IMG/VR virus record: IMGVR_UViG_2872192773_000004
Direction: 5' to 3' (one strand)
Length of the DNA: 55,937 nt
From: a virus
Lineage: Duplodnaviria; Heunggongvirae; Uroviricota; Caudoviricetes
Shown: piece after piece, positions 9,001 to 24,000 of the stretch
How the letters are laid out: each line of letters begins with the position of its first letter
Position numbering within the stretch: the stretch's first letter is position 1
Made by a program: the position numbers

Positions 9001-12000
9001 GATGCGTGCCCCAGTGCCTGCATTTGGCTCCAGTTGCTGGAGGCGTTTTGCATCTTCTAGGAGTAGAGCGATAACGTGTTTTAATTCTGTCTCGTTCATT
9101 TTACTCACCTGAATGTCTTCCCAACCAACGACGTGCGCCAGCTTCGGTTTTAAACGTTTTGCTTTTGGTATACGTTATGGCGGTGAATGTGCCGTCCTGG
9201 TTGGGGAACACGCCGTACACCGGAGATTCGTTGTTGCCAAGATCGATAGTATTCATGTTGACCCCATTTCCCCTTAACGCCGGGGTAGCGGAACTGTTTG
9301 CTGAGAACACCGTGCGGTGTCTTGATGAATAAAATTTAGAATAACCTAAGGAGGGTGATCAAGATTTTTATGTAGAAAAACCTAAGTTTTTTGATGTAAA
9401 AAACACAAGTGTTTGAAAGTTTGTGCTTTTTATTACAGGGTGTGGAGAAAAAAGGGGATTATTTGTTTGCGCTTCTTTTGCGAGCTTTGAGTAGTTCTTC
9501 AAAAAGTTTGTTGAAATTTTCAACTCGAGCACGCATCTCTGACAACAGGGCCTTTTGCTCTGACTCAGGCAGTGCGTCGAACAGTTGAAGTAACTCTTTT
9601 TGATCTTCTGTCAGAATGGCTGGCTGATTATCCGGGATCGGTTCGCCTGGTTGTTTATCTTCATCCCCAAAAAGAAGCCAAGTCGGTGAGCACTGAAGCG
9701 CTTGGCTCAGTGCGAATAATCTTTTCCCCGCCGGCTGTGTTTCATCTCTTTCCCATTGAGAAATTGTTACGTGAGCCACTTTGACCAGCTTACCTAATGC
9801 GGCCTGAGACAGTTTTAATTTTTTACGCCTATGTAAGAGGCGAGCACCGAAGGTTTCGTTTTTCATATTAGGGAATTCTAATTTTTCTTGACTTAGGTTT
9901 CTCTACGGCCTGGTTTCCTTAGGAAAATCTAAGGAGCTCGATATGTTGAAAATTGATGCTATAGCGTTTTTTGGCAGCAAAACAAAGCTTGCCAATGCCG
10001 CAGGAGTTAGGTTGGCAAGCATTGCTGCATGGGGGGAACTGGTTCCTGAAGGTCGCGCGATGCGCCTGCAAGAGGCATCTGGCGGGGAACTTCAGTACGA
10101 CCCCAAAGTTTATGACGAATATCGTAAGGCAAAACGACCTGGGAAGGTGATTCATGAAAATCAGGCATGAGCACATCGAATCAGTGCTGTTAGCCTTGGC
10201 AGCCGAAAAAGGGCAGGCGTGGGTCGCTAACGCAATTACTGAAGAATATCTGCGGCAGGGGGGCGGCGAATTGTCTCTGGTACCAGGCAAGGACTGGAAC
10301 AATCAGCAGAATATCTATCACCGTTGGTTGAAAGGTGAAACGAAAGCGCAAAGGGAAAAAATTCAGAAACTGATCCCTGCGGTTCTGGCAATTCTTCCGC
10401 GTGAGCTGCGTCACCGACTCTGTATCTTCGATACCCTGGAACGCCGTGCATTACTGGCGGCGCAGGAAGCGTTGAGTACGGCAATTGATGCGCATGATGA
10501 TGCTGTCCAGGCCGTTTACCGGAAAGCACATTTCAGCGGTGGTGGGTCGCCCGGCGATTCTGTCGTAGTGCATTGATTGAAATTAATCGTGCCGGATTGT
10601 TTTGTTCGGTATCAGTTAAATGTAACGCTGCGAGCGTTACAAGGTGAAAACAAATGGCTTCAAACTGGATAAAGCTCGAGGTTATTACGCCGGATAAGCC
10701 GGAAATATTCAGGCTTGCTGAGATTCTGAATATTGATCCAGATGCCGCATTAGGGAAGGTTATTCGCTTCTGGGCATGGGCGGATCAACAAATGATAGAC
10801 GGTAATGCAGATTGTAACGCTCGCGGCGTTACAAAAAGTGCAATAGATCGCATCACTTTTATGTCTGGTTTTGCTGATGCGTTAATTCAGGTTGGATGGC
10901 TGGTCGAAAATGACGGTGGGCTTTCTCTACCTAACTTTGAACGTCATAACGGAAAAAGCTCTAAAAAACGGGCGGTTACAAACGAGCGAGTAACAAAAAT
11001 ACGCGAACTGAAACGAAAAGGTAACGCTGCCAGCGTTACACAAACGGATCAAAAAGCGTTACCAGTGGAAGAGGAAGAGGAAGAGGAAGATCTAAATACT
11101 GATCTCCCCCTAAATCCCCCTCGCCAAAAACGAGCGTCTAAAAAATTCGAGCCGGAGGCTATTGAGCTGCCCGATTGGTTGCCGGAAACACTCTGGCATG
11201 AGTGGGTCCGGTTCAGACAGGCATTGCGAAAACCGATTCGAACGGAGCAGGGCGATACGGGAACTGGAAAAATTCCGTCAGCAGGGTTTTACACCTGAGC
11301 AGGTGATTCGACACAGCATCGCCAATGAATACCAGGGCCTGTTCGCGCCGAAAGGTGTTCGGCCTGAGACGTTGCTCCGACAGGTTAACACCGTCTCGTT
11401 GCCGGACAGTGCGATCCCGCCAGGCTTCAGGGGGTAACGGACCATGAAAAATATTGCGACAGGCGGCGTTCTGGAACGCATCCGCCGACTGACCCCGCAA
11501 CATGTAACCGCCCCATTCAGAACGGTAGCGGAGTGGCGCGAGTGGCAACTTGCTGAAGGCCAGAAACGTAGCGAGGAGATCAACCGCCTGAATCGCCAGT
11601 TGCGGGTGGAAAAAATTCTGAATCGCTCAGGCATCCAGCCGTTGCACCGTAAATGCTCGTTTGCGAATTACCAGGTGCAGAACGACGGCCAGCGATACGC
11701 GTTAAGCCAGGCGAAATCCATCGCCGATGAACTGATGACCGGGTGTACAAATTTTGCGTTCAGCGGAAAACCTGATACCGGGTAGAATCACTTAGCGGCA
11801 GCTATCGGGAATCGCCTGCTGAAAGACGGTCAGACAGTGATTGTGGTTACCGTGGCTGATGTTATGAGCGCCCTGCACGCCAGCTATGACGATGGGCAGT
11901 CAGGCGAAAAATTTTTGCGGGAGCTGTGCGAAGTGGATCTGCTGGTTCTTGATGAAATTGGCATTCAGCGCGAGACGAAAAACGAGCAGGTGGTGCTGCA

Positions 12001-21000: not shown

Positions 21001-24000
21001 TAGATTGTGAGCGCCTTAATGAAATTATCAATGAAAACAATCAGTTTTCCCGAAATGGGGAAACCCGTTTTCGGGAAACTGTAAAACCCAATTTCGCGGA
21101 GGAGGGAAAGCCTTCACCGCGGACACGGGAAACCCCTCGCCGCGGAGAAGGGAAAACCAATTTCGATCTTACAGAGAATACAACAGAGATTACTTCAGAG
21201 AATACTACAGAGAGTAAAAACACTATTGGCGCATCCGCTGACGCGTCTGCACCAGCGCGTTCTTCCCGACAGGAATATTCACCGGAATTTGAACAGGCCT
21301 GGCAGGAATATCCAAAACGTGCTGGTGGTAACTCAAAATCCGCAGCCTTCAAAGCCTGGAAAGCCCGGCTCAGGGAGGGAATAAAACCTGAAGCCATGCT
21401 TGATGGCGTGAAACGCTATGCTGCCTGGGTACGTGCCACAGGAAATACCGGCACACAGTTCGTGAAGCAGGCTGCGACGTTCTTTGGACCCGATCGTCAC
21501 TTCGAAGACTTCTGGCAACAGCCAGCCGCTCCCAGAGGTGGGCGACAGCGACAGGTCGATGTCCTGGCTGGCCTGGGAGCCATGTCTGACAAATTCGGTA
21601 AATCCAGTGACAAACTGACATTCTGAGGTGACAGCGATGATGACGTTTAACCTGCGTGAACAACAAAAAAGACTACAGGCGCGAATGGATGAGTTACGGG
21701 CAGAGATTGCATTTGCTCAGAAGGGCGAAAAGCCATGGCCTTATCGTTCCTGCCTGATGCGTGAAGGTCGCGGATATTGCGAAAAACATGGCGAATATCA
21801 CACGCATATACTGGTGTGGAGCGATCGTAATGGCGAGGACAGAGAAGAAATTTCATGCTGCCCTGACTGCTTAATCGCTGAGGCCAACGATTTGACCATG
21901 GAGCTGTCGTCCATCAAGGCGGAAGAGCTGACTGATAACGCCGGAATTGCCCTGCGTTTTCGGGACTGCGAGTTTGATAATTATCTGGAGGTTAATCCTG
22001 GCGCAGCCAGAAATCTTGCGGCCTGTCGCCGCTATGCGGAGAACTGGCCAGATATGCTGGAGAACGGTACCAGTCTTGTTATGACCGGCAGTTGTGGTAC
22101 CGGAAAAAATCATCTGGCTGTGGCTATGGCAAAACACATCATCCGTAACTATCTGGCCAGTGTGGAGATCACCGACGTGATGCGCCTTACCCGTGCTGTG
22201 AAAAATTGCTGGCGGAATGACAGCGAAAAAACAGCGGATGAAGTTATTGAGCGTTATGCGTCAATGGATTTGCTGATCATCGACGAAGTTGGCGTTCAGT
22301 TTGGCAGCGCGGCTGAAATGGCTATTTTGCAGGAAATTATCAACGCCAGGTACGAAAGTATCTTGCCCACCATTCTTATCAGTAACCTCTCACCGGAAGA
22401 GTTGTGGGCGTTCATCAGTCCCCGAATTGCCGACAGGATCACAGACGGGGGACGCAACTGGTTGTCGTTTAACTGGCCCAGTTACCGTTCTCGTATCAGA
22501 GGTGTGGCTGCATGACAACTCCAGTATGGCGTAACGATGACCTTGAAGGCGCTGTCATCGGCGCGTTCTTTCTGCGCGGAGCAGATCCTGAAGTGATGGA
22601 TATTCTGGCCACACTGCCAGCGGACGTTTTTTCTGTACGAGCGTATCAGGATATCTATACAGGCATCTGCAGACAGGCCCGTGTTTCAGGAGTGATTGAC
22701 CCCGTGCTGTTGTGTAATGAGATGCCGGAACTTGCCCCGGTGATTACTGATACCGGGCGTAAAACCTGGGTGAAGTCTTCACTGGAGCACTATGTTGCAG
22801 CGTTGCGGCGCAATGCCGCACTGCGCGATGCAGAAAAAACACTGAATGAGGCGCTGCAGAAATTACGTGATGCGCATACCTGTGAAGCAGCTGAAGATGC
22901 CCTGAAGGATGCGCAGAACATGATGGTCACACTGTCGACAGGAAAGGGCGTCATTCAGCCGGTACATATTGATGATGTGCTTCCGGAAGTGGTTGAGCGT
23001 GTTGAATGCCGGAATCAGGGGCTGGAGAAATCCAGGACGTTGATGACCGGTATTGATGAACTGGACGCAAAAACAGGCGGTATGGAGCCCGGAGACCTGG
23101 TATTCATTGCCGCCCGTCCTTCGATGGGGAAAACCGAACTTGCGCTGGACATCATCGACAAGGTGACTGAGCAGGGGCATGGTGTGCTTCTGTTCACCAT
23201 GGAGATGGCGAACATCCAGATTGGTGAACGTATGGTGTCTGCGGCTGGAGGGATGCCAGTATCACGCCTGAAATCTGTGGCTCACTTTGAAGATGAAGAC
23301 TGGACGCGTTTCTCACAAGGGGTGGGGCGGATGACCGGGCGCAATATCTGGATGGTGGACCAGGCGAACCTGGCCATTGATGAGATATGCGCAACAACGA
23401 AACACCACCTGATTAAATATCCGGAAACGGCGCTGGTGGTGGTTGATTATCTCGGGCTGATAAAAACCCGAACCACGGGGCGTCATGACCTTGCCGTGGG
23501 TGAAATCTCAAAGGGGCTTAAAGGCCTGGCAAAATCCGGTGGTTTTCCGTTGATTGCGCTGAGCCAGCTCTCCCGCGGTGTGGAGTCCAGACCCAATAAA
23601 CGTCCCATGAACTCAGACCTGAAAAATTCCGGAGAAATAGAGGCGGATGCAGACATCATTCTGATGCTTTACAGGGATGAAGTGTACAACCCGGATACGC
23701 AGGCCAGGGGCATCGCAGAAATCAATATCACGAAACAACGTAACGGTTCTCTGGGAACGATTTACCGGCGTTTTTATAACGGACATTTTCTGCCTGTGGA
23801 CCAGGAAAGTGCACGGGTGCTTTCCACTCCCATGAAGCCCGGCAATCCGCGCAGATACAGTAATAAACGAACTGACAGCAGTAAGATGGAGCGTTTCTTT
23901 TGAACAACCAGACAATGACTTTTACCCCTGAACAATTGCGTAAACACGCGCAGGAAATGCTGCGTCATGCTGAACAACTCGAAAAAACGGGCATAACAAA

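Follow-up and report, generated by a model that had tools for sequence, protein, structure and literature searches.

The window, the whole stretch of 55,937 nucleotides analysed here (IMG/VR virus record IMGVR_UViG_2872192773_000004), is 100% identical over 20,645 nt (positions 654-21298) to the chromosome of Shigella flexneri 94-3007 (serotype 7b, CP024473). It carries two phage early regions, henceforth module 1 and module 2, and a heavy load of insertion sequences (IS): four IS600 copies or part-copies, three identical IS911 copies, one IS2 and one further IS3-family element. A preliminary description of the sequence had proposed that the two early modules are of different phage types and lie side by side, and this was confirmed by Pfam and PHROGs searches, by Pfam assignments precomputed for identical proteins and by a comparison with intact orthologues.

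The two early regions

Module 1 (8666-17101, plus strand) is 99.2-100% identical to positions 17889-25056 of the prophage adjoining ybhA in E. coli FDAARGOS_943 (NZ_CP065615; L001 among the related loci compared here), and Pfam and PHROGs matches identify it as a Rac/Qin-type early region. Besides a DUF1391 gene, it has a DicA-like repressor gene with a helix-turn-helix (HTH) domain on the minus strand (9459-9866, HTH_3), divergent from a Cro-like gene (9943-10170, P22_Cro) and then ydaT (10154-10576, YdaT_toxin), with matches above the Pfam cut-offs. Next come a ydaU-like initiator pseudogene (10654-11437, phrog_2509), a ydaV/DnaC-like loader pseudogene (11444-12190, phrog_50) and a DUF977 gene. 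The PHROGs scores for initiator and loader (E = 1.9e-87 for phrog_2509 and E = 9.8e-83 for phrog_50) were taken on the intact FDAARGOS_943 orthologues, the window copies being pseudogenes. The DicA-type immunity genes and the ydaT-, ydaU- and dnaC-like genes were thus found where the preliminary description had placed them, and its view that the latter two are inactivated was correct. Compared with the intact FDAARGOS_943 copies, the ydaU-like gene has an 11-bp deletion after position 11249 that shifts the reading frame, while in ydaV an AAA to TAA change at 11783 replaces the lysine codon of the Walker-A motif GKPGTGK with a stop codon. The truncated ydaU-like product led to eight related assemblies, each of which has both lesions (8/8). 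The ydaU-like gene also shows a separate 12-bp in-frame expansion of a GAG-rich (poly-Glu) stretch at 11064-11075 relative to E. coli.

The remainder of module 1 consists of a cargo stretch (13189-14258) with the gene for QueH, an epoxyqueuosine reductase (13189-13875), and a hok/sok type I toxin-antitoxin locus (117 bits with the Rfam sok model), followed by a DUF1367 gene split by IS600 copy b (15203-16466, a simple insertion flanked by GCT/GCT), YbcO (16700-16990) and the first 115 nt, the 5' part, of a DUF1133 gene (16987-17101). The same layout of repressor, cro-like gene, ydaT, ydaU and ydaV is found in the K-12 prophages Rac and Qin and in induced Rac-like phages (MN652886; vB_EcoS-666R9, ON470614), the Rac-like phages showing 89-94% DNA identity over parts of the module. 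Compared with Rac and Qin, module 1 is itself a mosaic, combining Rac-type replication genes (pseudogenes here) with a DicA-type repressor, which we take to resemble DicA of Qin.

The FDAARGOS_943 prophage matches three separate parts of the window (2177-2409, 3659-7334 and 8666-17101) at 98.7-100% identity and shares with it the genes for DicA, Cro, YdaT, YdaU, YdaV, DUF977, QueH, hok, DUF1367, YbcO and DUF1133, the lysis genes, and those for DedA, TerS and TerL. In that prophage these genes are colinear (early, lysis, packaging), whereas in the window the late pieces come first, so that the order is permuted. It further differs in having intact ydaU and ydaV genes, no module 2, an unrelated integrase and an IS2 at another TerL position, 220 bp away. 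We refer to this FDAARGOS_943-like phage as phage type 1.

Module 2 (19938-24825, plus strand) was delimited by PHROGs, Pfam and comparison with a prophage of E. coli VL7S7. All of its genes lie on the plus strand: a rha pseudogene (19938-20501), an open reading frame (ORF) of 77 residues, an O-like initiator gene (20718-21626, phrog_270), a DnaC-like loader gene (21637-22515, phrog_50 and Pfam IstB_IS21), a DnaB-like helicase gene (22512-23903, phrog_19 and Pfam DnaB_C), an 85-residue ORF, ninH (24252-24452) and the Q antiterminator gene (24445-24825). Initiator, AAA+ loader and DnaB-family helicase are encoded in one operon with all frames open, as in the replication modules of phiP27 and Shiga toxin (Stx) phages. 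Upstream lie ninB (18367-18777) and ninE (18774-18950), both on the plus strand and identified by Pfam, and on the minus strand the genes of an HTH antitoxin (18992-19300, HTH_3) and a Gp49-family toxin (19290-19625; full-length Gp49 match, E = 3.4e-25). With an overlap of 11 nt on one strand, the genes of the Gp49/HigB-like toxin and the HTH antitoxin are predicted to form a type II toxin-antitoxin pair; when ten small or unassigned proteins of the region were searched against the anti-phage defence models of PADLOC, only weak, non-diagnostic matches were obtained, to this pair. The nin genes, toxin-antitoxin pair, rha, and O-, dnaC- and dnaB-like genes listed in the preliminary description were all recovered by Pfam and PHROGs.

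The second module had also been said to look intact, which holds for the O-, DnaC- and DnaB-like genes, ninH and Q, but not for rha. The former have no internal stops and differ from VL7S7 by 0-3 residues, while rha carries a premature TAG at 19989, where the E. coli orthologue has CAG (codon 18). This stop codon is common to five related assemblies and absent in VL7S7 (L002), L010 and L024.

The closest relative of module 2 is the VL7S7 prophage at mlrA (yehV), in which positions 15001-21249 of L002 are 99.7% identical to window 19657-25905; the lambda-type terminase of that prophage is 94% identical to the Nu1/A further right in the window. Stx1a- and Stx2a-converting phages and phiP27 carry the rha-O-DnaC-DnaB-ninH-Q block at 86-93% identity. 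VL7S7 (with its own cI/cro region), the Stx phages and phiP27 have cI/cro immunity genes upstream of this block, whereas by gene order the window has no cI/cro or operator region before module 2; it has instead ninB, ninE, the toxin-antitoxin pair and an IS911 joint, with rha stopped.

Directly 5' of rha, just past the position where VL7S7 homology starts (19657), two RNAs are predicted on the plus strand: an isrK-like small RNA with a terminator (19695-19771, 58.1 bits) and a C4-type antisense RNA (19796-19883, 74.8 bits), both above the Rfam gathering scores. In Salmonella Gifsy-1, isrK is followed by a small ORF and an antirepressor-like gene (PMC4825925), and, comparably with the isrK-orf45-anrP cassette of that prophage and with the C4 family (RF01695), the window has its isrK-like and C4-like RNAs right before a gene of the antirepressor type (Rha family). 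It differs in that the downstream rha gene is killed by a stop codon and in that its RNAs are predictions from sequence. An "Ash" reading frame (19377-19991) called in this interval is a doubtful gene, as it overlaps the toxin gene in antisense over its 5' half and the two Rfam RNAs over its 3' half.

Are the two modules copies of one another? YdaV is 28% identical to the DnaC-like protein, and no significant similarity was detected between YdaU and the O-like protein, indicating that the modules differ in type and are not duplicates. Each module was found alone, in different E. coli prophages and phages. A single known phage carrying both in this order would have contradicted the preliminary description, and none was found among phage records, E. 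coli genomes or IMG/VR contigs. Both modules together occurred in 0 of 50,697 phage records, where the best coverage of window 9000-24500 was 29% and always came from one module, and in one place in 0 of 5,426 complete E. coli genomes. Module 1 genes lie within 10 kb in 0 of 80 IMG/VR contigs that encode the DnaB-like helicase, and O-like, DnaC-like, DnaB-like, NinB or module 2 Q genes lie within that distance in 0 of 80 with YdaT, a reach that would catch an IS-free arrangement and would miss an IS-laden one such as that of the window.

Insertion sequences at the joints

IS3-family elements and IS2 duplicate a few bases of their target, and a simple insertion is therefore bordered by the same bases left and right. 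The IS911 copy at the joint between the modules (copy c, 17102-18350, plus strand) has no target-site duplication and is flanked by GTG/AAG. In L012, L013 and L018 the same IS911 lies inside DUF1133 as a simple insertion (GTG/GTG), and downstream of it follow the remaining part of DUF1133, a second tRNA cluster and a holin fragment. From this simple state, with the rest of phage type 1 beyond it, we conclude that the joint in the window postdates the insertion and removed the remaining type 1 DNA.

A second joint is formed by IS2 (7335-8665, plus strand), which separates module 1 from a late-gene fragment of the same phage type (3659-7334, plus strand, assigned by Pfam). This fragment comprises the Rz 3' end, a DedA/VTT gene (3993-4505, minus strand, Pfam), a TerS-like gene and the N-terminal part of TerL (Terminase_3), which is cut at 7334 by IS2; it is 99.4-100% identical to positions 28387-30596 and 31927-32146 of the FDAARGOS_943 prophage. 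The flank of IS2 towards TerL is GCAAT, and that towards the early-left region is CTGAG. L006 and L007 have one parental simple insertion, GCAAT/GCAAT within TerL, and L011-L016 and L018 have the other, CTGAG/CTGAG within the early-left region, so that the IS2 of the window is a recombinant of these two copies. In L021 the same IS2 is followed by the remaining TerL and by portal_3 head genes.

Two more hybrid elements lie to the left. IS600 copy a (940-2176, plus strand; flanks GAT/CAG, no target-site duplication) connects the integrase gene to a fragment of a first lysis cassette (2177-2409, plus strand), which consists of a holin 3' end and the 5' end of an rrrD-type lysozyme gene and is 98.7% identical to L001 27540-27772. 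IS911 copy a (2410-3658, plus strand; flanks GAA/AAA) then leads to the late-gene fragment, and 614 bp of the lysis cassette are gone across it. For IS911 copy c and IS2, both parents were found, each flank being one side of a simple insertion elsewhere; for IS600 copy a one parental half-site was found, the CAG side (holin fragment next to IS600), which also occurs in L005, L012, L013 and L018. The joints at 940, 2410, 7335 and 17102 are thus hybrid IS copies, each with a left flank from one earlier insertion and a right flank from another. By contrast with these hybrids, IS911 copy b (5393-6641), within the TerS-like gene that starts at 4700, is a simple insertion with a GAT/GAT duplication.

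Related strains show the same region rearranged in other ways. L008 (LR213452.1) equals the window minus 3659-18350, a deletion between two IS911 copies, and hence has no module 1. L016 (CP026768.1, strain 93-3063) has a deletion of 14625-20793 with an IS1 at the scar, which shows independently that the two modules were neighbours in the same orientation. In L011, L014 and L015 the same DUF1133 stump is joined through other IS911 joints to other points of the module 2 prophage. A junction search in complete E. coli genomes found no genome with the joints of the window, in an output swamped by IS911 matches.

IS-mediated joining, as put forward in the preliminary description, accordingly stands for the joints at 940, 2410, 7335 and 17102, but not for that at 19657, which has no IS. 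The segment with ninB, ninE and the toxin-antitoxin pair (18351-19656) is of other origin than the block that follows, as homology to the VL7S7 prophage begins only at 19657. In L010 (5157-5805) a TumE and HVO_A0114-type (HTH) gene pair stands exactly in place of the Gp49/HTH pair (window 18992-19625). Because L010 carries a different cassette there and its homology to the window resumes at the same nucleotide, 19657, this piece is attached by ordinary mosaicism and not by an IS event, and the Gp49/HTH position seems to be a hot-spot at which small cassettes are exchanged. Upstream of ninB, the L006 sequence runs on to a Toprim_2 primase gene, broken only by a simple IS911 insertion (GGAG/GGAG), and this continuity indicates that the prophage at the lambda attachment site was already mosaic before the IS events.

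With high confidence, we conclude that the window is a cryptic-prophage region of the S. flexneri chromosome beside the lambda attachment site (ybhC), built from at least two unrelated lambdoid prophages through recombination between IS copies. The proposal of a mosaic of at least two phages joined by IS events is supported by the hybrid IS flanks, the separate E. coli matches and the lack of co-occurrence elsewhere, and when the window was assigned segment by segment to phage lineages and compared for synteny, its two early modules matched distinct E. coli prophages, with the type 1 pieces in permuted order.

Alternative readings and the order of events

Could the two prophages have integrated site-specifically in tandem, at the same or adjacent attachment (att) sites, and decayed in place with no role of IS elements in joining them? 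The native sites are close: the type 1 prophage adjoins ybhA in FDAARGOS_943, type 1 late genes abut pgl through IS1 in L020, L025 and L026, and the integrase of the window adjoins ybhC, integration sites that we take from the E. coli K-12 gene order to be about 8 kb apart. Yet no att site or integrase lies between the modules, the type 1 material is found beyond ybhC, inside the att-lambda prophage and permuted with late genes before early ones, and every junction is a hybrid IS. We therefore regard tandem integration as very unlikely.

An assembly artefact, in which copies of a 1.25-kb IS were mis-joined and the modules are not truly adjacent, is also highly improbable. Identical IS copies are a classic source of mis-joins, and the three IS911 copies of the window are 100% identical. 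However, the CP024473 genome was completed from PacBio and Illumina data with optical mapping (PMC5754485), the independent assembly L016 joins module 1 to module 2 through its IS1-bounded deletion, and L011 and L015 likewise have module 2 after the DUF1133 stump.

Hardly credible at all is a single decayed phage that had both replication modules from the start, whether through duplication within its genome or as a natural double replicon, with the IS elements as later passengers. The extra Toprim_2 gene upstream of ninB in the module 2 prophage of L006, where the IS911 is simple, shows that this lineage does have replication genes in tandem that no IS has joined. However, the joint in the window is a hybrid IS911 whose simple state elsewhere leads into module 1's own DUF1133, tRNA and holin genes, and the region has two genes in the Q position, two sets of lysis genes and terminases of two types. 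The loaders share only the 28% identity given above, the initiators are unrelated, and the modules occur together in none of the phages, complete E. coli genomes and sampled viral contigs. The statement that the region is not one decayed genome was therefore upheld, by the hybrid IS911 at the joint and the lack of sequence relationship between the modules.

Given assembly from at least two prophages through IS recombination, how might the region have arisen? Phage type 1 contributed the early region (8666-17101) and the lysis, DedA, TerS and TerL fragments (2177-7334), and a phage type 2 the isrK/C4-rha-O-DnaC-DnaB-ninH-Q-tRNA-lysis block (19657-27532) and probably the lambda-like late genes too. 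A type 1 prophage already carrying IS600, IS911 and IS2 may have become linked to the att-lambda prophage through IS600 homology, whereupon IS2-by-IS2 and IS911-by-IS911 recombination would have deleted the DNA in between.

Several observations weigh against this account. The coordinates of CP097828 and CP097831 suggest that in some strains the type 1 late fragment (at ybhC) and the module 2 block lie about 750 kb apart, provided that these sister assemblies, taken as comparable for their nearly equal lengths, share one coordinate system, so that a simple tandem ancestor is not assured. L006 and L007 have DedA-TerS-TerL directly after the lysis genes of module 2, with the same IS2 insertion as the window, making the original owner of DedA-TerS-TerL ambiguous. 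The link from lysis to late genes is an IS600 cluster, and a third phage may thus have been involved. At some IS911 joints, a flank that adjoins one IS end in one strain adjoins the other end in another. Loci of 20 kb do not suffice to reconstruct the order of events, which is not established in view of the separation in the sister assemblies, the L006/L007 arrangement and the IS600 cluster link. A one-step model, in which an excised type 1 circle entered the att-lambda prophage through IS600, would fit the IS600, IS2 and IS911 flanks; we did not adopt it, given the apparent separation of about 750 kb.

The IS911 flanks pose a puzzle of their own. Were homologous recombination alone at work, a flank should stay on the same IS end in all descendants. 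A comparison of window positions 3659 and 17101 with L003, L005, L014, L015, L019, L022, L023 and L027 showed instead that three flanks (the DUF1133 stump, the other DUF1133 half and the Rz 3' fragment) abut the left IS911 end in some strains and the right end in others. Homologous recombination within the IS is therefore insufficient, and another transposase-linked or independent event is needed. End-targeted behaviour of IS911 is known from plasmid experiments, and the pattern hints at end-targeted or hot-spot insertion. That IS911 repeatedly inserted beside resident IS911 ends or into end-like targets in natural populations is a tentative idea that we consider rather unlikely; if true, end-targeted transposition would be a real contributor to the scrambling of Shigella genomes.

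The window is an ordinary instance of an already known process in a published genome, and no new system or mechanism is revealed by it. S. flexneri genomes are described as having hundreds of IS copies and only cryptic, fragmented prophages (PMC5596473), and IS-driven rearrangements are reported for Shigella (PMC8072062). The phenomenon there is the same (many IS elements; genes lost, fragmented and rearranged); the present locus differs in that its junctions are not treated one by one in the passages and abstracts consulted. For annotation, it calls for caution, as prophage finders would call one or two "prophages" in what is a patchwork of five or more separate segments derived from two or more phages, and the gene order in the window is uninformative about the biology of any real phage. 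Hybrid and simple IS insertions are possible markers for ordering rearrangements among S. flexneri lineages.

State of the region and its other genes

The region lacks the attributes of an intact inducible prophage: it has a shortened integrase, only pseudogenes of ydaU, ydaV and rha, broken TerS-like, TerL and Nu1 genes, and portal and J genes that appear split. With integrase, replication and packaging genes damaged and no immunity region for module 2, the region is dead as a phage. Its persistence is most likely that of a passenger with cargo that would be useful to the host, namely an ipaH gene, four tRNA genes, the toxin-antitoxin pair and hok/sok. Two packaging systems are indeed present, as the preliminary description had it, but both are broken, and of its two lysis modules the second is complete (25628-27539), while only fragments of the first remain (2177-2409 and 3659-3894). 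Among phages, the TerS/TerL fragment comes closest to a PBSX-type terminase region of a Klebsiella phage.

At the left edge of the window, a gene on the minus strand (1-771) encodes a tyrosine integrase of 256 residues (Pfam Phage_integrase) that is N-terminally shortened; in the related genomes L007, L024 and L028, ybhC is followed by an integrase of 293 or 356 residues. To the right of module 2 lie four tRNA genes (25025-25335, plus strand). The first is called Met (CAT) by ARAGORN, and near-identical E. coli copies are annotated as tRNA-Ile in RefSeq; a second copy of the cluster, 98% identical, follows the DUF1133 gene of module 1 in other strains. The second lysis cassette, on the plus strand, has genes for holin (25628-25843), lysozyme (26542-27075) and Rz (27072-27539). 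Between holin and lysozyme it has an ORF of 209 residues (25847-26476) that has no Pfam or PADLOC match and is absent from the FDAARGOS_943-type cassette.

Between the lysis genes and a truncated Nu1 stands a nested IS cluster (27922-31370), with two IS600 left-end parts in inverted orientation around a 1310-bp IS3-family element; an ALIL frameshift pseudoknot lies in this element, whose transposase ORF is split. About 200 nt of the 5' end of Nu1 were removed by IS600 at 31370/31371. The lambda/phage 21-like late region that follows (31371-52935, plus strand) comprises the 3' part of Nu1, A (GpA), W, portal, head and tail genes, J, and the genes for a tail fibre and its assembly, and from 31746 on is about 91% identical to phage 21 and lambda relatives. 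The portal gene (33762-35355) seems split into 351 and 207 residues, the same 351-residue ORF being called in other strains, and the J tail-tip gene (46735-50215) seems split into 912 and 255 residues.

The right edge of the prophage material holds a gene on the minus strand (53115-54878) for an effector of the ipaH family of E3 ubiquitin ligases (Pfam NEL and LRR_TTSS), which immediately follows the gene for tail-fibre assembly. A literature search for "ipaH island" together with prophage returned no papers. In other strains an inverted copy of the tail-fibre/ipaH end adjoins a recE fragment of module 1, with IS600 between them. The Toprim_2 primase gene lies upstream of ninB in related genomes (L006 81-2764; L004 6164-7672; L022 12281-13789, coordinates that also cover the following two observations), where one copy is interrupted by or fused to a LAGLIDADG/Hint-type element and a group II intron reverse transcriptase lies near this prophage material in others.

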